From an uncultured virus (IMG/VR IMGVR_UViG_3300032829_000001) (Duplodnaviria > Heunggongvirae > Uroviricota > Caudoviricetes): a DNA stretch of 64,000 nucleotides. Of the stretch, positions 1,928-56,897 are shown in pieces. The stretch lies in IMG/VR virus record IMGVR_UViG_3300032829_000001. The stretch is one strand, 5' to 3'. A program made the position numbers and the translations under genes. Within the stretch, counting starts at the first letter, position 1, and every line of letters begins with the position of its first letter. The notes beneath the pieces are model-generated. The model was not told where the DNA came from and did not search any database. It saw nothing but the letters and a program-made list of their open reading frames with translations.

Positions 1928-2415
1928 CTCAGCCACTTCCAATTGTGCCGCCCGCTGATAGCCGCACGAATCGTGACCGGTCTTACCTGATACTTCTTCG
2001 CGAACGCGGCAATCAGTCGTGCGCCTGTGTTCGGTTGTCGCGCCTTGAAGGACTTGCGCATGCGAAGAACGGCTACTGCAGTCAACTTGGTGATCGGCTT
2101 CGCCTCACCTCTAGGCTCTCGTCCCTTTCTTCCTGTATCGAGGCGGTTTTCACGCTGCGACGCCCACTTCAAGTGTTTGTAGTTGCAGCACGGTGGGTTA
2201 TCGCACTTCCAATGCATGGCGACAGGGCCCGTCCGTCCAGTCTTTATTCGAAGCGCCACTCGATGCGCGCGTAGGTGTTTCTGTTGTCGGAACTTGCCAA
2301 CGGCAAACTTTCCGTATCCGTCCTTGTCTACGCCTGCTTTCCACGGCCAGCACGCATTTGGTCCTCCCGAGCGATCGACCTTCGACCAGAACCGCTCTAC
2401 GTCTGCGCGCTTCAT
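1924..2415 (-). CDS. HNH homing endonuclease (phage type)
   Basis: RFWSKVD...CWPW...GYG...AHRV...HWKCDNPPCCNYKHL...N. Confidence 0.85.
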   Translation of the reverse strand: MKRADVERFWSKVDRSGGPNACWPWKAGVDKDGYGKFAVGKFRQQKHLRAHRVALRIKTGRTGPVAMHWKCDNPPCCNYKHLKWASQRENRLDTGRKGREPRGEAKPITKLTAVAVLRMRKSFKARQPNTGARLIAAFAKKYQVRPVTIRAAISGRHNWKWLR

Positions 2416-3227
2416 CGCATCAAAAGTTCTCTTACTGGCTGCCGCCCGTCCGCTTTCGAGCTGATCGTACCTCCCCGCAGGATCTCTTTGATCTCGAATT
2501 CACCGTCACCGTACAGCTCTCGAATTAGAGGCGTGTCTGAATTGGAGAGCACTACGCATACACCCTTTCGTTTCAGCCTCCGCGCAAGTGCACACAGGTC
2601 GCGCTGATCCTTCTCCGTGAAGCCGTCACGGGTGTAGCTGGTAAACGATGCGGTGTCGCTCGTAGGCGCGTACGGCGCGTCCATATAACAGGCGTCGCCC
2701 GGCCGCGCGCGCTCCTCCACCGTGCGGAAGTCACAGTTGATGATCGTCGCCGGGGCGAGAGCGTTCGAGCAGTCCCGCAGCGTCTGCTCGTCGCAGATCG
2801 TCGGGGGTGACGAGAACGTGCCCGCTGGGACGTTGTACTTGCCGTCGCCGTTCACCCTGAACAAGCCGTTAAAATTGGTCTTGTTGAGGAAGATGAACGC
2901 CGCGGCCAGCTCGGGGCTCTCCATGTCCTCGGACAGGGACAGGTGCGCCCGCACGTGGTTGTAGAACGGCGCGCCATGCTGAGCGTAGGCGGCCGCGTAG
3001 ATCTTGAGCGAGGCGATGACGGCATCGACGTCGCTGCGCACAGCGCTGAAGGTGCGCGTGAGCATCGTGTTCGTGTCGGTCAGGTAGGCGAAGAACGGGC
3101 GCCGGGCGAAGAAGATCGCGCCCGAGCCGAGGAACGGTTCGTGGTAGCGCCCCCCGTAGGGCAGCCACGCCGAGATCTCGTCGGCGAGCTTCCTCTTGCC
3201 GCCGGGCCATCTAAGAAATGGGTTCAC
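2412..3227 (-). CDS. dam: DNA adenine methyltransferase, Dam/D12 class
   Basis: PFLRWPGGKR, EPFLGSGA, NFNGLFRVN, YMDAPY (DPPY-like), LSNS motifs. Confidence 0.9.
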   Translation of the reverse strand: MNPFLRWPGGKRKLADEISAWLPYGGRYHEPFLGSGAIFFARRPFFAYLTDTNTMLTRTFSAVRSDVDAVIASLKIYAAAYAQHGAPFYNHVRAHLSLSEDMESPELAAAFIFLNKTNFNGLFRVNGDGKYNVPAGTFSSPPTICDEQTLRDCSNALAPATIINCDFRTVEERARPGDACYMDAPYAPTSDTASFTSYTRDGFTEKDQRDLCALARRLKRKGVCVVLSNSDTPLIRELYGDGEFEIKEILRGGTISSKADGRQPVRELLMR

Positions 3228-3874
3228 GTACGTGCGCCTCGCTCACCGCGACGAGGGAAGTTAAGACATGCGAACGAGCCGAAGTGATAGCGTGCTGCTC
3301 GATCATAGGCACGAGCTGCGGCCTCGGGAGATCGAAAACAACCAAGGTGTTTTTTCTTGTAGCTGACACAAATATGGGCTTTCCACGCATATGGTCGGCG
3401 TTTTCTATCGACTACAACAGCTACCCCTTTAAATTGTGTAGTGCTGTTGCGGCGAACAGGCTGGTTCCATGCATTAGTTTGGCGAGTAGCCTTGCGGAGA
3501 TTTCGGCGACGATTATCTAACCCGTCACCATTCCAGTGATCCACTTCTCCCCGACGAAGTGGAAGGATCAAACAGTGCATCGAAACACGCGGTGCGTGGC
3601 GCCCGTAGCCTGCACACGCCTGTGCGTAGTGATACGTCTTTCCGTTTGGTCTGCGACCTATATAGTGAGTCCAGCGGTATCCCTTGACGCGCGAAAGATC
3701 CTTCGCGTCGACAACAGCATAGCCACCTAGTTGTCCACCGAGTGGCACTCGAACTGTGGCCTGGCGTGGGCAGGTCAGCAGCGTTCTATTCCGATCGCGG
3801 ACTGACGAAAGCACGCTTGACACGACGGACACGTGAAGTCTTTTGCTAGTATCTGTCCGCATACGCAGCTCCAT
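3224..3874 (-). CDS. HNH endonuclease with C-terminal AP2 domain (start uncertain)
   Basis: VDHWNGDGLDNRRRNLR; FKGV...WKAHI...HLGCF...AARAYDRAA...FACLNFP. Confidence 0.88.
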   Translation of the reverse strand: MELRMRTDTSKRLHVSVVSSVLSSVRDRNRTLLTCPRQATVRVPLGGQLGGYAVVDAKDLSRVKGYRWTHYIGRRPNGKTYHYAQACAGYGRHAPRVSMHCLILPLRRGEVDHWNGDGLDNRRRNLRKATRQTNAWNQPVRRNSTTQFKGVAVVVDRKRRPYAWKAHICVSYKKKHLGCFRSPEAAARAYDRAARYHFGSFACLNFPRRGERGART

Positions 3875-4359
3875 CCAAAGAACCGGGCCGGATTACCAAC
3901 AACGCACGCGTGGGGTTGAATGTCTTCTGTGACAACAGACCCAGCGCCTACGAGTGAGAATTTTCCGATCGACAGTCCGCACAAAATCGTTGCGTTAGCG
4001 CCAATAGAAGCACCAAATCCGACGTGTGTCGGCGAGAACATTACTCGTTCCGATCGCTGAGCGCGAGGAATGCGCGTATTCACGAACACGACATGCGGGC
4101 CGATGAACACGTTCTCTTCGAGCGTCACGCCCTCGAAGAGCTGCGCGCCGTTCTGGATGCGGCAGCCGTCGCCGATCTTCACGTCGGGACCGATGTGCAC
4201 ACCCTCGCCAATCATGCAGTTCTTGCCGATGACTGCGCCGTGAGAGATGTGCGCGAGCGCCCAGATCGTTGTGCCGTCGCCGATACCGACTGGGTCGAAA
4301 TCTGGCGGCAGGATGACAGTCGGGTGGACGCGCCGGCCTATCCACGCCGCGCCTTTCAT
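3775..4359 (-). CDS. Hexapeptide-repeat N-acetyltransferase, WbpD-like
   Basis: IGDGTTIW, IGKNCMIG, IQNG, GASIGANATILCG, VGAGSVVT, VVGNPAR and GWSCVCG tail typical of WbpD/WlbB. Confidence 0.85.
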   Translation of the reverse strand: MKGAAWIGRRVHPTVILPPDFDPVGIGDGTTIWALAHISHGAVIGKNCMIGEGVHIGPDVKIGDGCRIQNGAQLFEGVTLEENVFIGPHVVFVNTRIPRAQRSERVMFSPTHVGFGASIGANATILCGLSIGKFSLVGAGSVVTEDIQPHACVVGNPARFFGWSCVCGQILAKDFTCPSCQACFRQSAIGIERC

Positions 4360-5489
4360 CCCCGCACCGCCTCTTCAAACGCCCGCGAGCACTCGTTGAC
4401 CTGCTCGTCTGTCATCCCGTACCACAGCGGCAGATTGATGACCCGCTCGCAGAAGCGGCGGCCGTGCGCGAGCGAGCCCGTGCTGATCGAGATGCCTGCG
4501 GCGCCGGGCTGGTCCGCGATCGACTTCGGGTAGACGTGGCGCGCCTCGATGCCTTTCTGCTGCAGCTTGCCCGCGACGGTCTTGGGGTAGTCGACCTGGT
4601 GCACGTGGAGGTAGCCGTTGCCGAACGGAAAGTAGCGGCCGCTCGATTGTGCCAGTGCGTGCTGCACGTCCTTGCGTCCTTCGATCACCCTGTCGCTCAC
4701 CTCCAGCGCGCGGAGCAGCCACGCAGCCTGGATCGCGTCCATGCGCGAGTTCCAGCCCACGGCGGCGTGCTCGTAGTGCCCGGACCGGCCGTGGTTCGCG
4801 AGCGCTCGCACGCGCTTGGCGACGCGCTCGCTCCGGGTGAGTACCGCGCCGCCGTCGCCGATCCCGCCGATTACCTTGGCCGGATGGAAGCTGAGTGTCG
4901 CCACGTCGGCATCGGCGAACACGCTCTGGCCGTCGTACTTCACGCCGAACGCCTGGGCGCCGTCCTCGATCAGCGTGATGCGCTTGTCTCGGCAGACGCC
5001 CCGAAACTCGGCGAGCTTGCTGGAGCACCAGCCGAAGAGATGCACGAGGATGACGGCGTCGAACCGGCGACTGTGGTGCGCGCGCAAGAACTCGCCGATG
5101 TCCATCTGGAGGTCGACCGGGTCGATGTCGAGGAGCACCGGCGTCGCACCGACGTTCGCGACTGCCTCGAACGTGGCCCAGAAGGTGACGTTGGGGATCG
5201 CGACGCGGTGGCCCCGCTCGATGCCGCAGGCACGAAGCGCGAGCTGGAGCGCGTCCGTGCCGTTCGCGCAGGCGACCGCGTACTTGGCATCGAGCTTCTG
5301 AGCGAGGGCGGCCTCGAAGCGCTGAGTGGTGGGGCCGCCGCCGATGAACTCGTGATTGGGCCACACGACGTTGTTCAGATGCTCTTCGAAGTCGCCCTGG
5401 ATCGCTGTCGCGTCCCCGTCGGCGCGGTGGCCCATCACCAGCTCGACGTACGGCTGCAGATCGATGAATGGGATCAGCTTCTCGGACAT
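4356..5489 (-). CDS. DegT/DnrJ/EryC1/StrS aminotransferase, WbpE-like
   Basis: ANGTDAL, VHLFG, IEDGAQAFG, SFHPAK (PLP Lys), GDGGAV, GWNSRMD. Confidence 0.9.
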   Translation of the reverse strand: MSEKLIPFIDLQPYVELVMGHRADGDATAIQGDFEEHLNNVVWPNHEFIGGGPTTQRFEAALAQKLDAKYAVACANGTDALQLALRACGIERGHRVAIPNVTFWATFEAVANVGATPVLLDIDPVDLQMDIGEFLRAHHSRRFDAVILVHLFGWCSSKLAEFRGVCRDKRITLIEDGAQAFGVKYDGQSVFADADVATLSFHPAKVIGGIGDGGAVLTRSERVAKRVRALANHGRSGHYEHAAVGWNSRMDAIQAAWLLRALEVSDRVIEGRKDVQHALAQSSGRYFPFGNGYLHVHQVDYPKTVAGKLQQKGIEARHVYPKSIADQPGAAGISISTGSLAHGRRFCERVINLPLWYGMTDEQVNECSRAFEEAVRG

Positions 5490-6752: not shown

Positions 6753-7382
6753 GTGACGCTTCAAGAGGCAGCGCTCGCCGTCGCGATCACCAAGCTCGGC
6801 GTGCACGAGGTGGGGGGAAACAACTGCGGGCCCGAAGTCGAGGAGTTTCTCGCATCCGTCGGGCTCGGACCCGGCAACGCATGGTGCGCCGCTTTCCTTT
6901 ACTTCTGCTTCCGCCAGGCCGCTCGGCAGCTCGGCATCGTCAACCCGTGCCCCCGCACCGCCAAGGCCGTGCGGATGTTCGCGCTCGCCGAGGCGCCCTG
7001 GCGCGACTCCAATCCGTCTGTCGGGTCCATCTACGTGCTCGATCACGGGACGCCAGGCGACGTGCTCACGGAGTGGAAGAACGGACGCTACACCGACGAC
7101 GGCCACGCTGGGATCATCGCGTGCGTCAACGACACGGCGGCGCCAATCGACTACGCTATTCCGGGCGTCGCCGCGACACTGCTCGGCCTGCCGACGGGTA
7201 CGACGACCGTCTCGGTGCCGCCCGGCTGCATCGCAGAGATCAGCGGGAACACGAACCGCGCCGGCTCGCGCGAGGGCGACTCCGTGTGGCTCAAGGTCGG
7301 CCAGGCGCCGGAAGACATCCACGGCGGAGTGCTGCTCGGCTACGTGAACCTGGACCGCGCCGCCCAGCAGCTCGTGGCCTAG
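6753..7382 (+). CDS. CHAP/NlpC-like amidase (putative endolysin)
   Basis: GVHEVGGNNCGPEV, AWCAAF (catalytic Cys), GHAGI (His), ISGNTN. Confidence 0.75.
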   Translation: MTLQEAALAVAITKLGVHEVGGNNCGPEVEEFLASVGLGPGNAWCAAFLYFCFRQAARQLGIVNPCPRTAKAVRMFALAEAPWRDSNPSVGSIYVLDHGTPGDVLTEWKNGRYTDDGHAGIIACVNDTAAPIDYAIPGVAATLLGLPTGTTTVSVPPGCIAEISGNTNRAGSREGDSVWLKVGQAPEDIHGGVLLGYVNLDRAAQQLVA

Positions 7383-7747
7383 GACCGCTCCAGCTTTTGC
7401 TGCGCCAGTTCGGCCTTCGCCGTTTCGATTACGTTCGCGCGGAACGACCCCATGAGCTGCACGAAGATGCGGTTTCGCGAGTAGTTCGGCGCTCCGCCGC
7501 TCTCTAGTTGCTGGAGCGCCTTGTAGCAAGAACGGCAGATCGTGGCGAAGTCCTGCGCCGATTGTGTGACTTCGACATTGCCTGTGGGAACGCCAGGAAC
7601 AGACGTGGCCGGAGTGGTAGCCTGAACCTGGATGACCAGTCGACTCGCGGCGTGTGCAGCACACATGTCTTTGGTGCACAGCGCGCACTGGTAGTCGCCC
7701 AGCACCTTGCAGTCCTCGGTGTCGCAGACGGTCACCTCTTTCTTCAT
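7379..7747 (-). CDS. Cys-rich zinc-binding protein, paralogue of 60893 and 61231 genes
   Basis: VCD...C...CALCTKDMCAAH...ICRSC...LAQQKL. Confidence 0.55.
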   Translation of the reverse strand: MKKEVTVCDTEDCKVLGDYQCALCTKDMCAAHAASRLVIQVQATTPATSVPGVPTGNVEVTQSAQDFATICRSCYKALQQLESGGAPNYSRNRIFVQLMGSFRANVIETAKAELAQQKLERS

Positions 7748-8124: not shown

Positions 8125-8306
8125 GACGGCTCCTTTTTCGTCGTTACCGCCGTGAAGTGCGTCCTCGGGTCGAGCGTTCGTAGGATGCCCGTCTCGGCGC
8201 GATCGGCGAATCGTCGTGACCCGAACGGCCCGAGCTGCCGCTCCACCTTGCGCGTCTCGGCGTTGTGGACGTTGACGTAGTGGTCGAACTTCTGCCGCTT
8301 GCGCAT
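8121..8306 (-). CDS. Small hypothetical protein
   Basis: Similar to the C-terminal part of 10650..11063 (HYV...T.KV.R.+GP...A.+.E.G+L). Confidence 0.5.
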   Translation of the reverse strand: MRKRQKFDHYVNVHNAETRKVERQLGPFGSRRFADRAETGILRTLDPRTHFTAVTTKKEPS

Positions 8307-9064
8307 TAGCCGCTGTCTCCTCCGCCCCCGCCGCCGCCCGAGGAGCCGCCGCCGAAGTCGAAGCCCCCCGAGGAGCCGCTAGACGATGAGCTGCCACTGC
8401 TGCCGCCCGAGGAGCCACTCCAGCCACCGCCCCCGCCGTAGTATCCCCCTCCACCGTACCCGCCATTGCTGCTCAGGACGGCGATGGCGCCGAAGATGAT
8501 GAACACGATGACGAGCACGACCAGAACGATGACCCAGTCGGGCACGTCGTCTTTCGCTGGGGGTTTCATCTTCGCGCGCTCGGCCCACGGCGTGGAACCG
8601 AGCTTGCTGATGACCGCGTCGACGCCGGCCACGACTGCCTCCGCACGCTTCTCTTGAAGGTTGAGTGGCTTCATCACGTCGGAGACGATGTGCGCGCACT
8701 GTACGTCGGTCAGCCAGCCCTGGATGCCGTAGCCGGTCTGGATCCACGCCTTCTTCTCGGGCGGAGGGACGACGAGCACGAGCACGCCGTTGTCCTGCCC
8801 CTTCTTGCCGATACCCCACTTCTTCCACACCGCGTCGGCGTAGTCGTGTGGCTCCTCGCCACCGAGTGTGGGCGCGATGAGCACGGCGATCTCGATGGAG
8901 GTCGCCTGCTCGTACGCGATGAGCTTGTTCGTGAGCGCGTCGCGCGTCGCCTGGGGAAGGAGCCCCGTCAGGTCGGTCACGAGCCCGGTAGCCGTCGGGA
9001 CGTCCGCGGCGCGCGCCGTCGATGCGAGCAGCAGGAGGCCGAGTGCAAACCCCAGCCGCTTCAC
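8306..9064 (-). CDS. TPM domain (YgcG family) membrane protein
   Basis: Signal peptide, VTDLTGLL, WGIGKKGQDNGVL, IQTGYG, TM, Gly/Ser tail FGGGSSGGGG. Confidence 0.88.
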   Translation of the reverse strand: MKRLGFALGLLLLASTARAADVPTATGLVTDLTGLLPQATRDALTNKLIAYEQATSIEIAVLIAPTLGGEEPHDYADAVWKKWGIGKKGQDNGVLVLVVPPPEKKAWIQTGYGIQGWLTDVQCAHIVSDVMKPLNLQEKRAEAVVAGVDAVISKLGSTPWAERAKMKPPAKDDVPDWVIVLVVLVIVFIIFGAIAVLSSNGGYGGGGYYGGGGGWSGSSGGSSGSSSSSGSSGGFDFGGGSSGGGGGGGDSG

Positions 9065-9654
9065 TTGCCACCGCCGAAGTCGACGACGGGGGCCCTGTCG
9101 GCGCCGGCCTGCGCGGCAAACATGAGTCGCGGCTTGTAGCCGTAGCTGCTTGCGACCAGGCTGCCCGGGAATGAGAGCACGTCGCGGTTGTACAGACCAA
9201 TGACCTCGTTCACCTTGTGCCGCTCGGTCTGGATGCGGTTCTCCGTGCCTTCGAGCTGGGTCATGAGGTCGCGATACGCTTCGGTTGCGTGCAGCGCCGG
9301 GTAGCTCTCCGCAACAGCCAGGAGCTTCGTCAGTGACGACTGCAGGGCCGTCTGCGCGCTCTCGAACGCGGCGAGCTTCGCCGGGTCTTTGAGGTCGTCC
9401 GCGGTGACGTGGATCTGCCCGGCCTTCGCGCGCGCCTCGGCGATCTCCACGAACGTGCCCTTCTCGAACTGCCCCGCCGCCTGGACGGTCTTGACGAGAT
9501 TGGGAATGAGATCGGCGCGGCGCTGGTAGGCGGCGTCGAGGTCACCGAGGCTCTGCTGCACGATCTGATCGGACGAGACGAGGTCGTTGCGCGTGCTGCA
9601 GACGAAGCCTCCGAAGACGACAGCGATGATTCCGAGCGTGATGAACGTTTTCAT
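9061..9654 (-). CDS. lemA: LemA family protein
   Basis: N-terminal TM, YQRRADLIPNLV, AVAESYPAL, QLEGTENRI, YN...FP. Confidence 0.9.
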   Translation of the reverse strand: MKTFITLGIIAVVFGGFVCSTRNDLVSSDQIVQQSLGDLDAAYQRRADLIPNLVKTVQAAGQFEKGTFVEIAEARAKAGQIHVTADDLKDPAKLAAFESAQTALQSSLTKLLAVAESYPALHATEAYRDLMTQLEGTENRIQTERHKVNEVIGLYNRDVLSFPGSLVASSYGYKPRLMFAAQAGADRAPVVDFGGGK

Positions 9655-16613: not shown

Positions 16614-19600
16614 GTGAGCGCGGCCATCTACACCCGCAGGAACGCCATGGTCTTCGACGGGTACGGCGAGGACGTGAAGGTCGGCGACAGGATCACTGTC
16701 CTCACGCTGCGCCTCGCGGCTGACGGCACCCCGCGCAGTCTCGGCATAGCCCGCAGCGATATCCGGCGGGGCACGGTCATGGACGTAAACGTCACGAACG
16801 GCTGGAACCAGCGTGGCTTCGAATGGCAAACCGCTGACGGGTACGGAGAGCTTGGCTGGCTTGCGAGTGAGGGTGTCCGCTGGATCCGTGGCTGGCACAG
16901 CGAAAGATCGTCGACGGTCGATGCTCTGCTGGCTGCAGCACTTCTCGACAGGAGTGCCGCGTGAGCACCTACTGGGACGTCCGCTGCCTCGACTGCAACG
17001 AGGAGTCGGGCCTGCACCTCAACTGGGGCGCCGACACGTGCCGCGGGCTGGTCCAGTTCCGCGATGCGCTCGCTGCGCTGGCGGACAGCGTGCTGGTCGC
17101 GACCGACTACATCATGATCACCGTGCCAGGCGAAATCGGACGCGTCGACCCAAGCTTCTACAAGAAGCACGCGGGGCACGTGCTCGCGCCCGTCAGCGAA
17201 TACGGCGACATCGACGGCGACTGCAACGAGCTTCGATCGACGGGGCCACACACGACCGACGGCGCGCGCTGCCGGCTGCCGGAAAAGCACGAGGGGGACC
17301 ACGACTTCAAGCGTGTGACGCCGTGGTCGCCCGAGTGGGAGGCGGTCCGCAAAGCCGCGGCGGAGCGCCGCCGTGGCTAGAGCCGATCGTCGAAGCCTCC
17401 GGCCTCATCGCGGGGAGGCGGTGATAGTCATCGGGCTCGACGATCGGCCGATCGTCGCGATCGTGAGCAGCCTCGAAGACGCCCCCAAGGCTGGCTTCCG
17501 TTGGTCGCATCTCGGCAGCTCGGGAACGTGCCTCTTCGCAGACAAGGGTATCACCTGGATGTCGTGGGGGCCGCCCGGCGACTCTGAAGCCGTGCGCGCG
17601 CTCGAAGCGGCGTACAAGCTCGCGAGGTCGGCCGCGTGATCAAGCCCCACCAGCGCCCGGCGCCCGCCGGCAGCATCGGGCGCAACCCACAGTCGCGGGA
17701 CGCGCTAGTCGCGGCCGATCCACCGCCAGGCTTCTTTCTCGGCCAGCAGGTCACGATCGTGTCTGCAATCCGCGGCAAAAGCTTCAAGGCCGCGCACGCG
17801 AACGTCGTGGCGCTCGGCGGCAAGGCGTTCAAAGCTGAGAACACGGTGACACGGCTCGTGACTGCACACGACTACGCCGACGAGGGCGTGTCGTGGGTCC
17901 GGGGCTGGGTCGACGACACCGAGGCGCTCGTCGCGGCGCGGATGCTCGTCGGGAGCGTAGAGCCGTGAGCACGGCCACCCAGCTCGTGCTGCCCGATCCG
18001 CTCTGTGCTGAGCGTGCCGGCTGGCCTTACATCACGGTGGTGAGCGTGAGCGGCTACAGCCACGTCACGGAGGCCGCGAACCTGGCTGGCAGTACCTTTC
18101 GCTGGTACCTGAGCTGGGGCTACTCAGAATTTGCCGGGCTGTCCGAAGAGGGCGTCGTCTGGATCCGTGGCTGGCACGAACGTGAGTCGGACGAGGTTCG
18201 CGCGCTCCTCGCGGCGTGGAAGCTCTGGAGGTCGGCAGCGTGATCTCCGTCGGCGACAAGGTCACGGTCATTGGGTACACGAGTCGCACCTCTTTTGGCG
18301 AACCTCCTGTCTGTGTACTGGCCCGCGCCCACGTCGTCGACGTCGACGACAGCGAGTTCAACTGGATGGCGACACACTCAGAGATCGACAACACGACGTC
18401 GCTGAGCAGTGCCCGCCACGGCACGTGCGCCTTTGCCGAGCAGGGTGGCTGCTGGGTCGAGGGCTGGCCGGCGTTTGACAGCCCGGAGATCTCCGCGCTG
18501 CGCTCAGCGTGGCTGCTGGCGCCTGGTGCAGTTCCGCACGTCACGATGGACGATTGGAGCAGCGCTGATGTGGGCTGGTACGACGACGATCTCGACGACC
18601 GTGACCACCTTGGACGGGAGTTCAAGCCGTGAACAGCCCGGCGCTCGGGGCGAGGGTGACGATCGTCCGCTGGCGCACCGATACGCTCTGTCACGCTGAA
18701 GTCTGGGGGCACCAGTTCGCAGGATCGTTTCAGTGGAGTGATGGTAAGGCAGACGGATTCGTGGAGACCGACACCGAAGGCGTGCACTGGGCGCGCGGCT
18801 GGCTTCAGGACTGGACAGAGGAAGCCCGCGCACTGCTCGCTGCACACAAACTAGCAAGGAGCCAGGAGACATGACGACGACCGGAAGTCAGATCAAGCCA
18901 GGGGACGAAATCACAGGGCTGTCGCGCGGCGGGATGATCGGCCGCGGGGCGGTCCACACCGTGAGCAATGGCGAGTTCTTCGTGCAGCTCGTGCTGCAGG
19001 GCGGAGCGCGCTTCAACCACTACTTCAAGATGAGCGACGAAGGCATCACGTGGGTGCGCGGCTGGCACGACGACATGGAGGCGGTGAAGGCGCAACTCGC
19101 GGCGAAGAAGCTGGTCGACAGCGACGACGGCGACGAGTGAGCACAGTAGTCTGGGCCGTTAAGCAGGCTGTCACCTTCATCGCTGCCGGCGCGGTCTTGC
19201 ACGGGCAGGACCCACCGGAGGGGGGCACCGAGGGTATCGACTGGATCTGGGGAGACCACGAGCCTGGGTCAGACGAGGCTCAGGCTCTGCTCGCCGCGTG
19301 GCTACTGCGCGGTCCGAGGCCCCTCGATCTCGGACAAGCAGAACGGCTGTATGTGGCCGGGGTGCTGACGCTCGAAGAGTGGCAGCGAAACCTCGACCTG
19401 TGGGACGTCGAGTTCGCGGCTGGTAACGTGCGGTGACCCAGGCGCCGACAGACTCGTTCGCCGTCCCACTCATCGTGATCGTGCATCCGGGGCGAGCTGT
19501 CCGCGCAGTCGCACACGTGGAGGAGCTTAGGGGAACCAACTGCGACTTCGTCTGGTACTTTCGCCATAAGGGGCGTTTCGGCGGCAGGCGCCCCATCGAC

Positions 19601-21064
19601 GAAGAAGGTGTCACCTGGATGCGCAGCGATTCGCCCGTCAACAGCGAGGAGGCCGAGGCGCTGCGGGCAGCCGCGATGCTTTCAGGACTGCTCGCCCGGC
19701 ACGATGGTGTCGCGGCGTTCTTCTCGTTAGCCGATGCGCAGCCGCGGTACAACAACTGCCCACGGCACACGGAACGGTTCCGCCCGGTTCCTCGACGGGA
19801 CGTCACGCGGGTGGGGCGCAGACGATGAGCGACCGCGTGTGTGGCGGGGATCGCCCTGTGTGGCCGGGGCTCCAGATCATGTACGTGGACCCCGGATCAC
19901 GCGCGGTGTTCGCCGCCGAGATCGTCGCGTGCTTCTACAACCCCGACAGCATCGAGGGGGACTGGTTCAACTGCAAGACGGGATACTACAACCCGTTCGG
20001 CAGCGCGCTCCGCACGTGCGACGAGGGCACGACGTGGAGCCGAGACGCGAGTCCCGAAGGGCAGGCCGCGCTGCTCGCGGCATTCAAGTTGGAGCAGTCG
20101 GCCGCCTGATGGCCCTGCACCCGGCATCGGTGACGGACGGCGACAAGGTCACGGTCTTGTTCGGGACCGGGGCGGTACAACGGCCATACGTACGCAAGCT
20201 GACCGTCATCGGCCATCTGAAGTCGGGCGAGGTGCACGCGCGCCTAGGGCAGCATTCAATCGTGCTGGACTACGCAGAGTACGGCGTCACGTGGGCCAAA
20301 GGCTGGGACCGCGCAGACGATCTTCTCGCCGCATTCCTTCTTGACCTATCCGCCAGGTAGCTGGCATACTCCGCAGGCATGGCACTACGCCCTGCGATCA
20401 AGCGTGATTCCCCGCCCCTCGCCATCAGGCAGGTGCACAGCGACGTTCACCTGATCGCCCATGACGTCTTCATCCCGGTCCAGGAAGCCGACCGCGCGCA
20501 GACCGAAATGGCGCTGGCCCTCATCGGGAAGCTCCGCGATCGCGCGCTCCAGGCCATGAAGGACCAGGACGTCGACCTGGCCGACGCCGAAGAGGACAAG
20601 GTCGTCTTCGCCTTCGACTATCGGATCGAGAGCGGCCACGTCGTCGTGCAGGTGGATCAGGTCGCCGAGTGAGCGTCGCAGCCGGCGACAAGATCACCGC
20701 CTGGTTCGACGGCATTTTGACGTGCGGCACGGTGTGGGCGGTCAGCTTCAACGACGGCCTGCTGGGATGGTCTCCGATCGACGGTAGCCGGCGCCGCAAC
20801 GTGCGCCTCGACGAAGAGGGCGTCACCTGGATTCGCGGCTGGCACGTCGAAGGGTCCGAGGAGATCCAGGCGCTGCGCGCGGCGAAGAAGCTTTACGACT
20901 CGGCCGAGCGCGACACGTCGCCGACTGTGAGCGCCGGCAACGGCGGAGCCCAGGCCATCCCGATAGGGGCGCTGGTCGCGCTCACGGTGAGCAGTCGCTT
21001 CGTCGGCCAGATGACGGTCGAGCGCGCTGCCACCGTTCGCTGGCCAGACGTCGACCTGCCCTGA
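16614..21064 (+). repeat. Tandem array of 12 paralogous small genes sharing a C-terminal EGxxWxRG...ALLAA motif (plus 2 unrelated ORFs)
   Basis: Members 16614-16964, 17421-17639, 17636-17968, 17965-18243, 18240-18632, 18629-18874, 18871-19140, 19137-19436, 19433-19828, 19825-20109, 20109-20360, 20669-21064. Confidence 0.8.
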
Positions 21065-33260: not shown

Positions 33261-34904
33261 TCATCGACGGGGCTCCGTCACGACGAAGTCTTTGTGGTCT
33301 GCGAACGGGGGCTGCACGTTGAAGTTGCGATCGCTCGGCAGCGTGGTGTCGATCGTGATCCAGCGCGTCGGGAAGCGCGAGTTCTTCGGCAGCCCGGCTT
33401 GCAGGTAGATGTGGTCCCAGCTCGCGCCAGTGTTGCTGGTGATCCGGAAGCGTGTCGTGAAGCCGTTCTCCATCGCGAGCACGGCATTCAACACTGCGTG
33501 ATCGTCACAGTTCGAGGCCAGTGTCCCGTCGGCGAGAAAGAAGTTGTGATTCTCCTCGACAGTAATGCACCCGACACGTGCGCGCCCTGCCGGTTCGGCG
33601 CTCTCGACGTATCCGTAGCGAAGTCCGGGCAGGGTTTCGCGCAGCGTCTCCGTTCGCTTTCGCATTCCTGGCGACGTGTATTCGTAGAGACGCCAGATCG
33701 GGCTTCTGCCCACGCCTTGGTGGTTCTTTTGGTGCTGCAGATAGTGCGGGCGGCCAAGCACCATGAGCCCGAGTCGGAGATCTTCCGCCAGGCCGTCAGA
33801 CGAAGTTGCGTAGATCGCGGACACCTTGCCGTCCCACTTGCTCCCCGGCTTTGGGTGGTACGCGTCGCCGTCTCCGTGGGCCCCGATCAGCGTCTCGACG
33901 GTCTTGCGCGACCCCGACAACATGTGTGCTGGCAGTCGCATGTCGAACGAGTTGCTGCCCTGATCGCGTAGGGCGTCGATCAGTGCACCATCATCCGTTC
34001 GAACGTGCAGCTTGTACTGGGCCCTTCCATCGTAGTGAGCACTCGCGCCCACAGCGGCGATAGCCTCTTCGATCTTTGCACGGATCTCTGGGCGCATCTG
34101 TGCGATTGCCGTACCAGACCGACGTTCTTCTGCGTGGCCTTCAGCGGCATAGATCCCCGCCAGGTACGCCTCGGCAGGCGATACTTCTCCGAGATCGAGC
34201 GACGGGATCCAGGCGGCCTGCAGAATGCGCGTGCGCTCGAACCGCCGCCGTGCAGATCGGTTTTTCGCCACTTCGGCGTACTCACCCAGTGTGCGTACTT
34301 CCAGCTTCCAGTGCTTCGATTTCTGCCCATCGAGTGCCCAGAACTTGTGGTCGGCGGTCGCAACAAGATCGGTTCCGTTCGACAGTCGCGCCTTGAGCAC
34401 ATCCTTTTCGCCCTTGTCCTGAAAGTTAACGATCGGGCGAAACTCGTGCTTCATCGTCCGGAAGTTGTATGAGAGCGCCTCGTAGTATGGCCACATGAGC
34501 TGCAACTCGCTCAGGCGGACCAGCTCATACATCCCTGACGATTTCGATCGGCAGATGATCTTCGTGCTCGCTAGCGGGAAGCAGTCGCCTCCGCCATACT
34601 GCAGCGTCCGCCACGCACTCTGGAACGTGTCCTTCTCGGTGATGTCCCCGGTGTAGCGGATGTTCTTCTTCGTGAACCAGTAGATCGACTGCAGCTCGCA
34701 TAGCTCATCGCGGCCGCGGCACGGGCTCGTGACCTCCAGTCCGATCTGGCGCATGTTCGGGTCGTGAATCGACCCGGCGGGCGGCATGCTCGGGTCGAAC
34801 GCGTTCTCGCCGAACCAGACCAGCTTCCGCAAGAGCAGAACGCGATCCTCCAGCGTGCTCACCTGATGTGCCCGCAGCATCGGCGGGACCGCGCTGAATC
34901 GCAT
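33261..34904 (-). CDS. Transglutaminase-like cysteine protease interrupted by an intein (start uncertain)
   Basis: Spliced product reads IRYTGD...TLQYGGGD|CDDHAVL...GF..RF...WDHIY...IDTT (Cys-His-Asp). Confidence 0.8.
   Translation of the reverse strand: MRFSAVPPMLRAHQVSTLEDRVLLLRKLVWFGENAFDPSMPPAGSIHDPNMRQIGLEVTSPCRGRDELCELQSIYWFTKKNIRYTGDITEKDTFQSAWRTLQYGGGDCFPLASTKIICRSKSSGMYELVRLSELQLMWPYYEALSYNFRTMKHEFRPIVNFQDKGEKDVLKARLSNGTDLVATADHKFWALDGQKSKHWKLEVRTLGEYAEVAKNRSARRRFERTRILQAAWIPSLDLGEVSPAEAYLAGIYAAEGHAEERRSGTAIAQMRPEIRAKIEEAIAAVGASAHYDGRAQYKLHVRTDDGALIDALRDQGSNSFDMRLPAHMLSGSRKTVETLIGAHGDGDAYHPKPGSKWDGKVSAIYATSSDGLAEDLRLGLMVLGRPHYLQHQKNHQGVGRSPIWRLYEYTSPGMRKRTETLRETLPGLRYGYVESAEPAGRARVGCITVEENHNFFLADGTLASNCDDHAVLNAVLAMENGFTTRFRITSNTGASWDHIYLQAGLPKNSRFPTRWITIDTTLPSDRNFNVQPPFADHKDFVVTEPRR
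33510..34583 (-). mobile_element. Intein with LAGLIDADG endonuclease, 358 aa
   Basis: Starts CFPLAS; block B ATADHKF; YLAGIYAAEG and LIGAHGDGD; ends ITVEENHNFFLADGTLASN, followed by Cys +1. Confidence 0.9.
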
Positions 34905-37128: not shown

Positions 37129-38448
37129 TCAGGAAGATTGAGGAGTAGCCTCGGCCGGCTCGGCTGGAGGCATATCGGTCTCCTCGATCACTTCGACCAT
37201 CTGTGCCCGCACTGGGTCTTTCAGGGCCCTCTCGATTCCCCCGCGACGCCCGAAGCGAAGCTCGGTGAACCCAGGCCACTCGACCCGACGCTGCTTCGTC
37301 GCACACGCACACTCGTACCAGGCAAGCGCCCGTGGCAGGTCTCCTTGCCCTTCTGCGACGTCGCCGAGCAGGCAGAACGCCGTCATGCTCGGACCATCCA
37401 GAAGCGCGCGGATAGCCCAGCGCTCCGCTTCAGCCAAATTGTCCTCGTTGTAATAGCGAAAGGCGATCGACAAGGCCGCCCAGATGCGCTCGTCGCCGAG
37501 CAGGCTGTGTGGCTCGACACGAAGGCGGAAGTCTTCGACGAGCTTGACCGCTTCGGCGATGTCTACAGCCCGACCAGCCTTGTGCTTTGCGAGATGAAAG
37601 AGAGCAAGCACGTTGCCCTTCTCGGCCTCACTGAGCAACTCGTCGATTCCGACGTCTCGCTGCGCGAGCCGGCGCTCTTGCTCTTCTGCATCACGAAGGC
37701 TCGTGTCGCAGACGATTACCGCGTCAGCCTCCCGGGGCTCGTTCGGGTAGATGATCTGATTGTGCGTCTCGGAGACCCAACGGTACTTCGTGCGCACGAG
37801 CCGCTGTGGATCGCGGTGCTCAAACGTTCCCATCTGCACACGGATCGTGTATGAGTCGACGTTGTCGGGTGCGTCTCTCACGACCGTTCGGAGATCCTCA
37901 ACTTCTGCCGACCCGAGGTACTCGTCGCTGTCGACGACCAGCGCCCACGGTGCGCGCACGCGCTCGCGGCCGAGGTTTCGAGCAGCCGCGAAGTTGATCC
38001 GGCCCCGCGGGTTGCTGTCTGTCGGCCCCCACGCCTCACGGGACATCCTGATGTCCTCGGCCTGAAAGACGAACGCGCAGTCGGCGTACGCGAGCGCGAC
38101 CTTGAGCGTCTCCTCGTCGCTTCGACCATCAACCCCCAGGACGATCTCATCTACGTGGGGAAGCACGCTGAACAGCATCCGCTCCAGACCTGCGGCGTCG
38201 CTTCGCACAATGGTGTCGAGCGCGATGAGGGGTGCCTCGGGCTCGCCAGGGTCGATGTCGACGAACAGGCGTGCAGCATTCGCACTGAAGCGCAGCCGCC
38301 CTTTCGGCGCCAGCGCGGATCGTAGCTCGGAAACACGAGGCCCGCCTCGCTGCGGGTTCGGCAGAACGAGACGGGCCGGGGCGACGAACGTCAGCTCGGC
38401 CAGTGCTTCGGCCGTCGTGTGCTCGATATCGACAACCTCACGGGGCAT
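37129..38448 (-). CDS. GT2 glycosyltransferase with TPR-like repeats
   Basis: VDEIVLGVDGRS, NFAAARN, WALVVDSDE; helical C-terminus AFCLLGDVAE..GD...A..WY. Confidence 0.75.
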   Translation of the reverse strand: MPREVVDIEHTTAEALAELTFVAPARLVLPNPQRGGPRVSELRSALAPKGRLRFSANAARLFVDIDPGEPEAPLIALDTIVRSDAAGLERMLFSVLPHVDEIVLGVDGRSDEETLKVALAYADCAFVFQAEDIRMSREAWGPTDSNPRGRINFAAARNLGRERVRAPWALVVDSDEYLGSAEVEDLRTVVRDAPDNVDSYTIRVQMGTFEHRDPQRLVRTKYRWVSETHNQIIYPNEPREADAVIVCDTSLRDAEEQERRLAQRDVGIDELLSEAEKGNVLALFHLAKHKAGRAVDIAEAVKLVEDFRLRVEPHSLLGDERIWAALSIAFRYYNEDNLAEAERWAIRALLDGPSMTAFCLLGDVAEGQGDLPRALAWYECACATKQRRVEWPGFTELRFGRRGGIERALKDPVRAQMVEVIEETDMPPAEPAEATPQSS

Positions 38449-38478
38449 TCCGTGAGGCTATCACAAGCGAGCTGCTGG

Positions 38479-38970: not shown

Positions 38971-39041
38971 GGTGGGTTTTTGTTCCTCTTCGGGACGGGT
39001 TCCCGGACTCGGCCGCGGTCCCGACCGCAGCAGAGGGTGAC

Positions 39042-39175
39042 GAAACGCAAAAAGGCGCCCACCGCAGAGACCATCCCTGCGAGGAGCGCCCGATTTCCGA
39101 GTCGCCATGGGGAGGAGCCTGGTAGCTCCTCTATGTCCGAAGAGGATCGCCGATAGGGACGGGAGCTGTCAAATC
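39042..39175 (-). promoter_or_regulatory. TTGACA promoter plus structured attenuator-like leader, copy 2
   Basis: Aligns with 29372-29505, with compensatory stem changes. Confidence 0.7.
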
Positions 39176-41854: not shown

Positions 41855-41987
41855 TCGGGCTCCTTTCGTTCGCGATGGGGGCGCTTCATTTGTCCGGGGT
41901 AGAGCAACGAGAACCTATTGCCTGTGCGTACGCACGGCGTCCCTGGCGCGGCGCCACAGCGTGGGCACGTAACCATGGGCCAGCTCC

Positions 41988-45189: not shown

Positions 45190-45228
45190 CCGTCAAGGCC
45201 CAAGTTCGAGAGGTGATACTCTGCGGCC

Positions 45229-51683: not shown

Positions 51684-52850
51684 ATGAACCAGAAGATCCT
51701 GCACGCTCTCTTTTTCTGTCCCAGCCCGGAAGGGCACTGGGGCTTGCCCGCGCTCTTTCGCGGCGAGCCCGGCACCGGCAAGACCGCCAACATCAAGGCG
51801 GTCGCGAAGGCGTCCGGCCTGTTCTCGTACCGCATCTCGCCCGGAGAGCGCGGCGAGGGCCAGTTCGGTGTCGTGCCCGTTCCCGGCGCCGACGGGTTCC
51901 TGCACTACCCCCCGCCCGACTGGGCACACACGCTGGAGGAGAACGGCGGCATCCTGTTCGTGGACGAGCTGAACACCGCCCCACCTGCGCTCCAGTCCGC
52001 GCTGCTCGGGCTCGTGCAGCTCCGCACCATCGGGTCGTTCGTCTTCAACAAGCGCGTGCGGGTCATCGGCGCCACCAACAGCACAGAGGACGCGGCCGGC
52101 GGCTGGGACCTGCCCCCCGCGCTCGCGAACCGCTTCGGCCACTACGCGTTCGAGGGCATGGACGCCCCGAGCTGGGTGGAGGGGCTCATCGGCGGCTTCG
52201 GCAGCGACACGGAGGCGGCCACCCCGCCCGATCCCAGTGTCGAGGAGGCGCGCGTGATGGCAGCCTGGCCGGGCGCCAGCGCGGCGGCCCGCGGCCTCAT
52301 CGGCGGCTTCATCTTCCGGCGCCCCGAGCTGCTGCACAAGCGCCCGGCGCAGGGCAGCTCGCACGCGTCGATGGCCTGGCCGTCGCGCCGGTCGGTCGAG
52401 TACGCGGCCGTCGCCCTGGCCTCGGCCCGCGTGCACGGGCTGAACGAGATCGATACCGACGAGCTGCTCTCGGGCTTCGTCGGCCAGGCGTGGGTCACGG
52501 AGTTCCGCGTCTGGCAGAACCTCGTCGACCTGCCCGACCCGGCCGACCTGCTGGACGGCAAGGTCAAGTTCACGCACGACGAGCACCGGCTCGACCGCTC
52601 GCTCGCGACCCTGGGCGCCTGCACCGCGCTCGTCATCCCCGACAAGGCGGCGAACCGCGCGGCTCGCGCGGCGGCCTGCTGGCGGCTGGTCGACCAGATC
52701 AGCAAGACCACAGCGGACATCGCGGTCCCGAGCGCTCGCGCGCTCTGCGTCGCGAAGATCGTCGAGACGGTCGTCGGCAAGGAGTGGGCGACCAGCGGCA
52801 AGCCGGCGCTCTCGCGGCTCCTCCCCCTCCTGAGCGAGACCTTCGGCTAA
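51684..52850 (+). CDS. MoxR-like AAA+ ATPase
   Basis: GEPGTGKT, LFVDE, GATN, LPPALANRF. Confidence 0.88.
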   Translation: MNQKILHALFFCPSPEGHWGLPALFRGEPGTGKTANIKAVAKASGLFSYRISPGERGEGQFGVVPVPGADGFLHYPPPDWAHTLEENGGILFVDELNTAPPALQSALLGLVQLRTIGSFVFNKRVRVIGATNSTEDAAGGWDLPPALANRFGHYAFEGMDAPSWVEGLIGGFGSDTEAATPPDPSVEEARVMAAWPGASAAARGLIGGFIFRRPELLHKRPAQGSSHASMAWPSRRSVEYAAVALASARVHGLNEIDTDELLSGFVGQAWVTEFRVWQNLVDLPDPADLLDGKVKFTHDEHRLDRSLATLGACTALVIPDKAANRAARAAACWRLVDQISKTTADIAVPSARALCVAKIVETVVGKEWATSGKPALSRLLPLLSETFG

Positions 52851-54190
52851 TGGCTCTCTCGGCCAAAGACAAGCTCGCCGCCGCGATCATCCGGGTCGTC
52901 GATCCGGGCAAGCGCAGCAACGGGCAGCAGATCGGCGTCGCGCCGTACTTCGGCGTGGTCCTGCGGGGGCTCATTCGCCGCGAGATCACGGCGGACCAGG
53001 CCGCGATCATGGAGGCGCTGGGCATGACCCCGACGCTCGCCGTGAGCAAAGACGCAGTGCTGTGGTGGAGCCCGAAGTTCGTCGAGAAGACGCCCATCGA
53101 CGAGCTGGCTGGGGTGCTCGTGCACGAGGCGATGCACATCGTCCTCAAGCACAGCGACCGGGCCACGTCGCTCGGCATCGTCCCCGACGCGTCGATCGAG
53201 ACCTTCTCGAAGGCGCGCCGGTGGAACGTAGCCGCGGACCTCGCCATCAACTGTGACGTGCGGAAGATGGCGCCGCTGCCGAAGGACGGCTGCTTCCCCG
53301 AGCAGTTCGGCTTCCCCGAGGGCCTCACCGCGGAGGCGTACTATCGCCTGCTCCAGGAGGACGAGAAGAAGCAACAGGGCAGCGGGAAGGGTGAGGGGAA
53401 GCCCAAGCCGGGCGGCGCCGCCAAGGGGCACTGCGGGGGCTGCACCAACCACCCGATGCCGGGCGAGCCAGTGCCGGGCACGAGCAAGAGCGAGGGGCGT
53501 TCCGAGGCCGAGCTGGAGCGCATCCGTCGCGCGACGGCCGAGGCGATCAAGGAGTACGGCTCCAAGGCGCGCGGCACGGTCCCGGCGAGCCTGGAGCGCT
53601 GGGCCGACGAGCAGCTCGCGCCGCCGAAGATCCCCTGGCGGACCAAGCTCGCGCGGCTCGTGCGCGGCGCGGTCGCGTATCGGAGCGGGGCGGTCGACTA
53701 CACGTTCGGTCGGGTCTCGCGCCGGCAGAGTGGCGTCGGGTTCGGCACGGGGCGCCCGGTCATCCCTGCGCTGCACGCGCCGCAGCCCAAGGTCGCCTGC
53801 GTGATCGACACCAGCGGGTCGATGAGCGGCGACGCTCTGTCCGAGGCGCTCTCCGAGGTGCAGGGTGTGCTGAAGGCGGTGGGCGCGAATATAACTCTGT
53901 GCATCTGCGACGCAGAGGTGCACGGCATCAAGCCGATCGCCACCATCCGCGAGGCGCGCTCGATGCTCAAGGGCGGCGGCGGGACAGCCATGGAACCGGC
54001 GCTGGCCGCGGTCGAGAAGCTGAAGGACAAGCCCACGGTCTGCATCGTCGTGACGGACGGCTACATCGACCAGCCGCCGGAGCCGAGCTTCTCGGTCATA
54101 TGGACGATAGTTGGTGGCAATGCCAACTTCGAGATGCCGTACGGCGAGGTCGTGCACGTCGACGACGCCGCTGGGGAGAAGGCGGCGTGA
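52850..54190 (+). CDS. Putative metallopeptidase (DUF2201-like) plus VWA domain
   Basis: VLVHEAMH, NVAADLAIN, IDTSGSM (MIDAS), GGGGT, VTDGY. Confidence 0.85.
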   Translation: MALSAKDKLAAAIIRVVDPGKRSNGQQIGVAPYFGVVLRGLIRREITADQAAIMEALGMTPTLAVSKDAVLWWSPKFVEKTPIDELAGVLVHEAMHIVLKHSDRATSLGIVPDASIETFSKARRWNVAADLAINCDVRKMAPLPKDGCFPEQFGFPEGLTAEAYYRLLQEDEKKQQGSGKGEGKPKPGGAAKGHCGGCTNHPMPGEPVPGTSKSEGRSEAELERIRRATAEAIKEYGSKARGTVPASLERWADEQLAPPKIPWRTKLARLVRGAVAYRSGAVDYTFGRVSRRQSGVGFGTGRPVIPALHAPQPKVACVIDTSGSMSGDALSEALSEVQGVLKAVGANITLCICDAEVHGIKPIATIREARSMLKGGGGTAMEPALAAVEKLKDKPTVCIVVTDGYIDQPPEPSFSVIWTIVGGNANFEMPYGEVVHVDDAAGEKAA

Positions 54191-55599: not shown

Positions 55600-56897
55600 A
55601 TGGAGACGAAGCGAGAGATCAAGGTTGCGAAGGGAACGCAGATAACGCGCACGATTACCGACGACGACGGTAATCGGACGTTCGCACAGGTGACGACGAT
55701 CAGTGATGATGATGGCTTTGCCACACCTGTTTCCGACGACTGCAGATTGAGACTGGACTACGAGGGCAAGGCGTGGGTCCGAGGCTGGACAGGTCCGATC
55801 GTCACCGCATTCAAGCGAACCATCGTCGCCGAGGATCGTAAGCGAAAGCTCGACAAGTCGAAGCGCGAACGCGACGAAAGCGCGAAGCGCACCGCCGTCG
55901 CGACCAAGCGTCTCCAGGAGGCAGCCGCAGCCGTGAAGCAGGCCAAGCTGCCGCGGGAGCTGCGCCCCATCGCGTTCATGGCGCTGCTGGGTCCGTACCC
56001 GACCGCGATGATGATGCGCCCCTGGATGTAGCGTGGTCTCTCCGGGCACACGGGTGATGCTGGTCTACCTGCCGACGGGCGCGCCCCCCGAGGTGCACCC
56101 TGCGCAGGTAGTCGATCTGTGCATGGGCGAGTGGGCGGGGTACTTCCGCGCGGAGACTAGATTCACCATCATGCTGGCCAAGCTCGATCTCCGCAACATC
56201 ACCTGGACGCTGGGCCACTCGGCCGACACGGGTGCCGCGCTGCTCGCGACGTATCTGCTGTGGGCGTCCGCGCGGGAGTCGGTGGCAGGATGAACACGCT
56301 CCCATACATCGGCTGCGCGCTGACCATCATCGACCCGGGCCCGATGCGGCCGCACAGCAAGTACGGCGGGTCCGCGCCACGCCGCCACCGCGATGGCACG
56401 CCCCGCCTCATGAAGGTGGTAGTCGAGGCGATGCGCGGGCTCGCTGGCTTCGACATCGAGAACGCAACAGGCGTCAAGTACGTCGGGGCCGCCGACACCG
56501 CGATCCTGTGGCGCGCCGGCAGCCGGACGGGCCGGGTGCTCCTGAGCCGCGAGGGCACGGAATGGGTTCGCGGCCACGGGCCGGCGGCGCGGGACTCGCT
56601 GCTCGCCATGCGGATGTTGGTGGGGTCGGTATGAAGATCGGCGACAAGATCACCACCATTCTGCCGGATGGTCGCCCGATGCACGCGACGGTCACGGCTC
56701 TGCGCCCGCTGATCGGAACGACACCGTTCGAGGGTTTTGCCTGGGACATCGCCGACAACCACGGTCGGGGCTCGTACTATCGGTTCGACCGCGTGGGCAT
56801 CGACTGGATCCACGGCTGGCACTCGTCCGGATCGGAGGACTTCGACGCGTTTCTTGCAGCTCGGTTGTTGATCCTCAGCCAAGGAGACCGGCGATGA
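55600..56897 (+). repeat. Third cluster of EGxxW...AA family genes (4 members)
   Basis: 55600-56031 YEGKAWVRGW; 56033-56293 NITWTLGH..ALLA; 56290-56634 EGTEWVRGH..SLLA; 56631-56897 VGIDWIHGWH..AFLAA. Confidence 0.7.

Follow-up and report, generated by a model that had tools for sequence, protein, structure and literature searches.

This study concerns a family of short proteins encoded in a 64,000-nucleotide stretch, hereafter the window, of an uncultured virus (IMG/VR record IMGVR_UViG_3300032829_000001). The window corresponds to C1:62001-126000 of one 150,478-bp virus record with a GC content of 66% and a CheckV completeness of 100%. The family has 47 members in the record, 18 of them in the window, and its own signature, GDxITV...EGxTWxRG[WH]...ALxAAxxL. 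It is a real, virus-specific and unusually large expansion, undescribed in the libraries and the literature that were searched. Tentatively, as a reading which falls somewhat short of probable, we propose that the family is a library, renewed by birth and death, of proteins that bind host targets and likely counter defence, some of which show virion-derived bait. The function of the family as a whole is a prediction, and we infer the host targets and the bait function of the tails.

Members were counted with an iterated hidden Markov model (HMM) of the motif at E<0.01 on 2,751 six-frame segments of the whole record. The 47 matching segments reach E 4e-9 at the weakest, and the best reversed-sequence control stands at E 0.13. 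They form five clusters: C1:7004-7868 (3 members), window 16614-21064 (12), 29789-30384 (2) and 55600-56897 (4), and C1:130982-138662 (26). An earlier note on this DNA had located the 12, 2 and 4 motif genes of the window correctly. Its figure of about 18 paralogues is right for the window but not for the family, of which 29 members lie outside. The motif is present far beyond chance, yet it is looser than described: EG[VI]xW[IVS]R[GD]W occurs in 5 of the 18 window genes and EGxxWxR[GD] in 11. Its position at or near the C-terminus does not apply to 6 of the 18, which run 45-84 residues beyond the invariant Trp. The tight coupling of the genes is evident, 33 of 39 adjacent family pairs overlapping, 26 of them by 4 nt. 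Two genes within the first cluster carry no motif. The arrays sit among small non-structural genes, and the net charge of the members spans -14 to +9. The genes of the three window clusters are as follows (lengths in amino acids, aa).

16614..16964, + strand: family member 1, 116 aa
16961..17380, + strand: non-family gene in the array, 139 aa, Cys-containing, no motif
17373..17639, + strand: family member, 88 aa
17636..17968, + strand: family member, 110 aa
17965..18243, + strand: family member, 92 aa
18240..18632, + strand: family member, 130 aa, acidic tail, alternative start 18216
18629..18874, + strand: family member, 81 aa
18871..19140, + strand: family member, 89 aa, modelled; strands 13-17, 23-32, 35-42, 47-53, 61-63, helix 69-86
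19137..19436, + strand: family member, 99 aa, shortened barrel and acidic helical tail
19433..19828, + strand: family member with tail, 131 aa
19825..20109, + strand: family member, 94 aa
20109..20360, + strand: family member, 83 aa
20379..20672 (start 20379 or 20433), + strand: non-family gene in the array, no motif
20669..21064, + strand: family member, 131 aa, 50-aa tail without assigned source
29789..30052, + strand: family member, 87 aa, 85% identical to its orthologue in relative G001
30052..30384, + strand: family member, 110 aa; last 10 residues (30352-30384) resemble the capsid C-terminus, clear only in homologue P0057
55600..56031, + strand: family member, 143 aa, long tail; 55948-55995 borderline capsid-like (z 4.7)
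56033..56293, + strand: family member, 86 aa
56290..56634, + strand: family member, 114 aa
56631..56897, + strand: family member, 88 aa

Homologues P0010, P0021, P0024, P0051, P0072 and P0082 have two or three profile matches per chain, i.e., they are tandem fusions of the unit. Longer fused forms were absent from 8,000 candidates of 290-2,000 aa, which is weak evidence.

One member, the product of 18871-19140, was modelled with AlphaFold2 on a 47-row alignment. The model (mean predicted local distance difference test, pLDDT, 86.7) comprises five strands, the fourth and fifth separated by a short helical turn, and then a helix at residues 69-86. The predicted family fold is one SH3/Tudor-like barrel with a C-terminal helix. 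Because the invariant Trp61 falls in strand 5 of the modelled barrel, EGxxWxRG is part of the barrel and not a tag. Further, the family profile matches homologues across positions ~5-80, beyond the tail alone. Thus, the division into a variable head and a constant C-terminal tag, as the earlier note had it, has to be given up; one ordinary fold along the full length, which it had named as speaking against modularity, is largely what the modelled member displays in its single SH3-like barrel.

The N-terminal core is recognizable when own members and homologues are considered together: G11 (81%), I/V14 (95%), T15 (70%), G21 (74%), V28 (80%) and W38 (63%). N-termini that had been called barely alignable therefore share core residues at 63-95%, while it is correct that the median identity between paralogues is just 19% in the barrel (42% in the motif). 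Hypervariability driven by positive selection is not supported. In ten orthologue-like pairs, evaluated by a rough method and including one pair with a misplaced boundary, the ratio of non-synonymous to synonymous substitution rates (dN/dS) was 0.42 for the barrel, 0.32 for the motif and 0.48 for the tails. The DNA repeats of the arrays are 60-88% alike; they coincide with protein motifs, and codons at invariant residues follow genome usage, hence conservation operates at the protein level. A DNA cassette array (integron, shufflon) or a diversity-generating retroelement was rejected on the same grounds, repeats which track protein motifs and ordinary codons, and because neither RVT_1 nor another reverse transcriptase was found in the record.

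The best structural matches of the model are Tudor, PWWP and KOW domains, all tied at Z 5.5-7.2; those at Z 6-7 have a root-mean-square deviation (rmsd) of 1.6-2.7 A over 50-75 residues, among them the barrel-plus-helix of NSD2/WHSC1 PWWP1. All top rows are SH3-fold domains; they include the NusG KOW domain, the C-terminal Tudor domain of UvrD/PcrA, and CarD. With Foldseek the member model found nothing in the PDB at E<=0.001 and one unnamed row among viral models, and the best match of the family profile to PDB sequences had an E of only 0.48. PWWP domains are marked by a Pro-Trp-Trp-Pro motif at strand 2; since this is missing from consensus and column table, assignment as a PWWP domain was rejected. 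As for a Tudor aromatic cage, the conserved aromatics are limited to F36 (46%), W38 (63%), W61 (100%) and W/H65. Compared with KOW domains the fold is similar and the glycines of strands 1-2 are motif-like, yet no KOW (PF00467) match in Pfam occurred in 113 homologues.

A match of the motif to a described domain family, which the earlier note had named as refuting its idea, did not appear: nothing convincing emerged from Pfam, PHROG, NCBIfam or PADLOC. The 18 window members had no Pfam match at cut-off and one PHROG match at E 0.006; none of the 47 own members matched in PADLOC or NCBIfam; the 113 homologues yielded stray Pfam matches in 3 members and no PHROGs. An Atlas search with the family reached a best feature score of 0.89, below the bar. 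No record among 50,697 GenBank phages matched any family member or the capsid-like protein discussed below. A literature search covering main texts without supplements, few of them subscription papers, returned no description of the family, the virus group or capsid-fragment fusions, and the virus group itself looks undescribed. Family lists in supplements, e.g., those of PMC7824862, could bear on this novelty.

The search of viral databases with a motif HMM, proposed in the earlier note, proved fruitful: a profile search over 1.84 billion representatives extends the family to 817 public clusters at 50% identity (E<=0.001). From the best 150 of these 817, which were examined, 131 homologues from other genomes were fetched. 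At least nine relatives of the virus, 89-122 kb in size, were located via the capsid-like protein, and consequently the sample is biased to capsid-sharing viruses. Six of them possess the family, G001 with 18 copies, G002 with 20, G003 with 7-8, G004 with 1, G006 with 17-18 and the G009 contig with 25-26; their capsid identity is 74-98% (G001 is 88% complete, G004 70%). Relatives G005, G007 and G008 have 0 copies at 62-68% capsid identity, G007 being 99% complete. One relative is on a 108-kb contig binned in a Vicinamibacterales metagenome-assembled genome, possibly by misbinning; a search of 150 further genomes from the order of G009 gave no family member. Scanning viral contigs for a DNA pattern yielded, besides G001 and G002, five records, of which the four examined look like chance (long open reading frames, ORFs, or stops).

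Turnover is fast. In the 88% complete G001, 15 of the 47 members have a counterpart, at a median identity of 47%; for other genes the figures are 71 of 140 at 62% (small genes) and 51 of 82 at 70% (large genes). Judged from these sequences, the members are maintained proteins under fast turnover, with dN/dS of 0.32-0.48 despite so few counterparts. A quick family tree is poorly resolved for the most part, with stars on 5 of its 144 branches. In it the genes of the 26-gene array group together, needing 11 changes versus 24 when shuffled, as expected from local duplication.

For the C-terminal helix, a matrix of 13 positions was derived from 162 members and applied near the C-terminus at a threshold of 11 bits. 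By this measure 4 of 215 non-family genes finish in the helix alone; the null mean is 0.2, and none of 300 permutations reaches that number. Three of the four, which are paralogues of one another, are in the window; the fourth is at C1:140100-140399.

7379..7747, - strand: Cys/His-rich (zinc-finger-like) protein with the family helix at its C-terminus but no SH3 motif
60893..61234, + strand: Cys/His-rich (zinc-finger-like) protein ending in the family helix
61231..61776, + strand: Cys/His-rich (zinc-finger-like) protein ending in the family helix
55120..55575, + strand: non-family gene; its orthologue in G001 has the family helix at the C-terminus (score 14.2)

The helix is kept in two G001 orthologues (14-21 bits) and one G002 orthologue (10.7), and not in G009 homologues. 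In homologue P0073 a similar Cys/His-rich region is fused to the SH3-helix unit. It looks as if only the helix, not the whole motif, is portable. Thus, the idea of a constant module joined to variable surfaces survives in part: the helix is portable, the loops are variable and turnover is fast, but the boundary does not lie before EGxxW. As 36 of 178 members run at least 15 residues beyond the conserved Leu, a free C-terminus is not required, and this continuation argues against a C-terminal degron.

Such extensions lead to the tails, and these in turn to a protein of the same virus.

27006..27794, - strand: 262-aa predicted single jelly-roll major capsid protein; captured parts aa ~5-40, ~125-151, 250-262

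This 262-aa protein is strongly conserved in the relatives. Among the named Atlas clusters, PM2 P2 capsid domains come nearest, though the score is low (0.76). Its model (pLDDT 80.7) best matches the capsid proteins of SPV1, HCIV-1, HHIV-2 and P23-77 with Z 8.6, 7.3, 7.2 and 6.9, the match to SPV1 being moderate (rmsd 3.4 A, 136 aligned residues); Foldseek against viral models returned none. The protein is likely a single jelly-roll major capsid protein, a role read from the model. Pfam and PHROG scans of record proteins of at least 125 aa gave no match to an HK97 capsid or a portal. Singelaviria-like viruses have a second capsid paralogue and a packaging ATPase. Here, a 165-aa conserved gene adjoins the capsid gene (window 25504-26001), and a 610-aa HerA/DUF87 ATPase also matches, over 200 aa, a PHROG labelled terminase large subunit.

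Among 241 distinct members 49 have a tail of at least 10 aa and 192 do not. The first sign of capture was that two homologue tails, compared with the proteome of the present virus, matched the capsid N-terminus. Six tails match capsid proteins at z>4 and above all 60 shuffles: P0037 and P0108 contain capsid aa 5-29, P0111 and members from G002 and G003 aa 125-151, and P0057 aa 250-262. These are three distinct capsid segments, and the members that bear them are scattered over the weak tree. When 55 tails were compared on equal terms with 50 conserved viral families, ten of the tails reached z>=7, six from capsid (in frame), two from fibre, one from a 761-aa protein and one from DNA polymerase (PolA). 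Omitting two tails of locus L136, which was found via a capsid scan, leaves five capsid tails of eight. Capsid accounts for 1.6% of core residues.

The scan in question, of metagenomes with the capsid alignment, gave 68 loci, and L136 was the sole short match inside a contig rather than at its end. The tail of its family ORF is identical to the L078 capsid gene at 108 of 109 nt, and the ORF adjoins a member with a collagen tail. In a G002 member the tail contains 58 residues of a fibre protein (E 5e-17). In other tails synonymous sites have drifted. Homologues of the 20669 gene possess varied tails, i.e., capsid N-terminus, collagen-like or unassigned; for the 20669 gene itself a fibre N-terminal motif was rejected, 28 of 200 shuffles scoring equally high. 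In the window, the 30052-30384 product is 68% identical to P0057, and 6 of its 12 terminal residues are identical to the capsid C-terminus. The capsid-like tail of the 55600 gene is among chance-level rows. The P0100 tail resembles a stretch of DNA polymerase A (z 7.1), and an adenine methyltransferase-like tail (z 6.9) is among the P0098 / L142:9045-9476 cases; such tails suggest that capture extends beyond virion genes. Among 27 genomic tails, 6 are in frame at E<0.01, as compared with 1-2 in each of the other frames. As a pattern in the sequences, the repeated capture of capsid pieces has good support in the relatives and is weak in the window. A blastn search for DNA copies of other genes within the own arrays gave only short GC-rich stretches among the matches listed (best E 0.001). 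The record encodes no reverse transcriptase; by default, the captures would have arisen through illegitimate recombination.

How might such a family work? The 47 barrel-helix proteins would act inside the infected cell as diversifying binders against host defence proteins. A constant face, serving as the folding core and probably as a shared docking site, would consist of strands 1 and 5 together with the helix, and the loops between strands 1-4 would set target specificity. Co-translated arrays could deliver many binders at once. Capsid and tail-fibre proteins trigger bacterial defences, and capsid triggers require oligomerisation, according to work by others cited in PMC13728456. Because of this requirement, a monomeric capsid piece could bind without triggering, and presented on the scaffold it may occupy a capsid-sensing immune protein without the oligomeric trigger. 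A more specific version, possible but on present evidence unlikely, is that of a viral integrated-decoy library in a clade of large single jelly-roll viruses. Dozens of SH3-helix scaffolds would repeatedly take up, in frame, conserved capsid, fibre and polymerase peptides to which host immune sensors respond and show them as competitive antagonists, with the portable helix docking these and the zinc-finger proteins on one machine.

Several points weigh against a library of anti-defence binders with bait. The fold comes from a single model; SH3-like barrels are common, and a Z of 6-7 says nothing about function. Over the ten pairs compared by the rough method no region shows a dN/dS>1. About 10 members in roughly 250 have a captured tail, too few for such tails to be what the whole family is for. 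The window itself contains only one degenerate capsid tail (30052-30384), with z 3.1 not above the shuffle maximum. The cut at z>=7 was set after the table had been seen, and 15 more rows at z 4.2-6.9 represent assorted genes, partly by chance. Conserved genes are easier to spot as sources, which inflates the capsid share. Finally, the in-frame excess is modest and becomes flat at E<0.1.

A plainer explanation, to which we concede a low but real probability, is that of a weakly constrained birth-and-death family to which illegitimate recombination has added tails in frame by accident. Behind a stable helix such tails would be tolerated, and they would have no role of their own. This would agree with the large tail-less majority, with unrelated tails on close homologues of the 20669 gene, with the degeneration of older captures and with the said bias of detection. 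Yet all genes are equimolar as DNA template, and five of eight independent clear captures stem from 1.6% of the core residues. Moreover, when 15,767 six-frame segments from seven genomes were searched, three of the four best non-capsid matches were family ORFs in frame, just the first of them at E<0.01, and dN/dS is below 1 throughout.

The origin of 8 of the 10 clear tails from virion proteins brings up another explanation, namely that tails and helix address the proteins to virions or assembling capsids, either as cargo that is co-assembled and injected, or as capsid pieces by which assembly in competing relatives is poisoned (superinfection interference). Among the captured parts are the N-terminal arm with the first strand, and also the last strand, of the capsid model, and a helix on unrelated proteins resembles an address label. 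Against this, a near-identical capsid piece as in L136 would poison the assembly of the virus itself, most members have no such tail, and the arrays are among non-structural genes. We regard virion addressing as quite unlikely.

It seems improbable that the barrels retune RNA polymerase, Rho or ribosomes of the host through mimicry of the KOW/Tudor domains in NusG, UvrD or CarD. All three are structural neighbours of the modelled member, but these matches are tied with many unrelated barrels, none of 113 homologues has a KOW match in Pfam, the net charge of the members ranges from -14 to +9, and one target cannot explain 47 divergent copies or capsid tails.

Little probability, too, is assigned to the members being substrate adaptors of a viral MoxR-type AAA+/VWA-peptidase machine, in which the near-invariant Glu of the EG turn would be the residue that completes the metal site of the VWA protein, and host complexes to be remodelled would be selected by the loops or tails. 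The genes concerned are these.

51684..52850, + strand: AAA+ ATPase, PF07728, MoxR-like; partner role unsupported
52850..54190, + strand: DUF2201_N metallopeptidase and DUF2201 VWA protein; partner role unsupported

The earlier note had considered this MoxR-VWA pair a possible partner, and the 55600 cluster indeed begins 1.4 kb downstream of it. The Glu is 92% conserved and the VWA protein retains DxSxS, T and D. All six family-positive relatives have the pair together with a DUF6744 gene, whereas family-negative G005 lacks them, and the VWA gene is absent from family-negative G008. However, G007 has the VWA gene without any family member, leaving the partnership unsupported; co-occurrence tracks relatedness, and jumbo phages carry the same chaperone-peptidase pair, for which a survey proposes a role in virion assembly (PMC7824862). 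In the window DUF6744, a Mom-family gene and the AAA/DUF2201 pair are divergently arranged (49225-54190); the Mom-family gene was not found in seven relatives.

That the capsid-tail fusions are assembly chimeras is hardly credible: the 99%-identical case rests on one metagenome contig (L136) without a read check and several proteins are singletons on short contigs, but diverged tails with synonymous changes lie inside the 95-105 kb records G002 and G003, and P0037 was found on 4 contigs.

In the whole record a simple gene caller predicts 268 genes. The scans of proteins of at least 125 aa identified PolA, SNF2 and RecD-like helicases, thymidylate enzymes, a tyrosine integrase, collagen fibres, many glycosyltransferases, an SLT enzyme and a HerA-like ATPase. 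Sugar-modification genes, i.e., several glycosyltransferases, methyltransferases, a DegT aminotransferase and a UDP-glucose dehydrogenase, are near collagen fibre genes (window 2412-5489, 37129-47552, 58028-59272), which suggests a glycosylated virion. Of 36 tRNA genes 33 form one cluster (L003:2380-6634, C1), enclosing an HNH gene and a homing-endonuclease-like ORF, and three adjoin the capsid gene (window 26052-26284); one is called as tRNA-Ile(AAT), unusual for bacteria. The promoter-like word TGCTATGTTCC(TGGCA) recurs 15-60 nt upstream of the AAA gene, and likewise before two genes of the family and three further genes (window 51651, 51485, 59366; C1:132807, 134283, 50803). A transglutaminase-like gene (33261-34862, - strand) is split by an intein-like region, and the alignments with relatives cover shorter stretches. 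Beside the tyrosine integrase there are membrane genes of the LemA and TPM-domain types (8306-9654, - strand). The sequencing run which matches the record best is a wetland metagenome and may be its source; RNA datasets are not among the runs listed for the record.

If the integrated-decoy version is true, the captured peptides would map epitopes recognised by bacterial sensors. Should the tails be selected bait, this would be a counter-defence strategy that our literature search did not turn up, and each tail would predict a viral surface read by a sensor. Independent of this, 47 natural variants on one scaffold constitute a compact library for screens of defence systems.

How does the family compare with known systems? 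A survey of jumbo phages called an expansion of ~35 copies unprecedented (PMC7824862), and 47 copies in a 150-kb virus exceed it. That case, the zinc-ribbon of Bacillus phage G, is alike in that a single small domain has multiplied within one lineage of large phage; it differs by its fold and a proposed DNA-binding role, and the accessible part of the survey mentions no captured tails (PMC7824862). Phage proteins with predicted SH3-like domains which inhibit defence systems are Nip of phage Phi3T, which binds SpbK, itself triggered by the portal protein (PMC11984713), and Orf65, a counter-defence protein of an enterococcal phage (PMC11322646). By their descriptions, as far as accessible and on which alone they are set beside the family, both are single genes with other domains, without arrays or captured trigger peptides. 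Another such protein is Gp54 of Bas11, a small non-essential SH3-related phage beta-barrel that binds the same sensor, CapRelSJ46, as the major capsid protein does; it differs, in the accessible account, in being six-stranded and single-copy, in activating instead of blocking, and in carrying no capsid sequence (PMC11578894). Decoys in phage conflicts have been described, none of the captured-capsid kind in the accessible text (PMC12409349).

With the SH3-fold small barrels (Tudor, PWWP, KOW) the modelled member would share the five-strand barrel and the helical turn before strand 5; it differs by the absence of a sequence-level match and of the PWWP motif, and by the family's own signature and virus-restricted expansion. 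The single jelly-roll viruses SPV1, HCIV-1, HHIV-2 and P23-77, alike as best structural matches of the 262-aa protein, show a capsid identity of only 6-11%. Unlike them, the present virus has a 150-kb genome with PolA, 36 tRNA genes, collagen fibres and glycosyltransferases and no GenBank phage match. In the integrated decoys of plant nucleotide-binding leucine-rich-repeat (NLR) receptors an otherwise constant protein has acquired, through fusion, part of the protein to which the opponent binds. By analogy, the family would stand on the opposite side of the conflict, the virus displaying its own trigger peptides.

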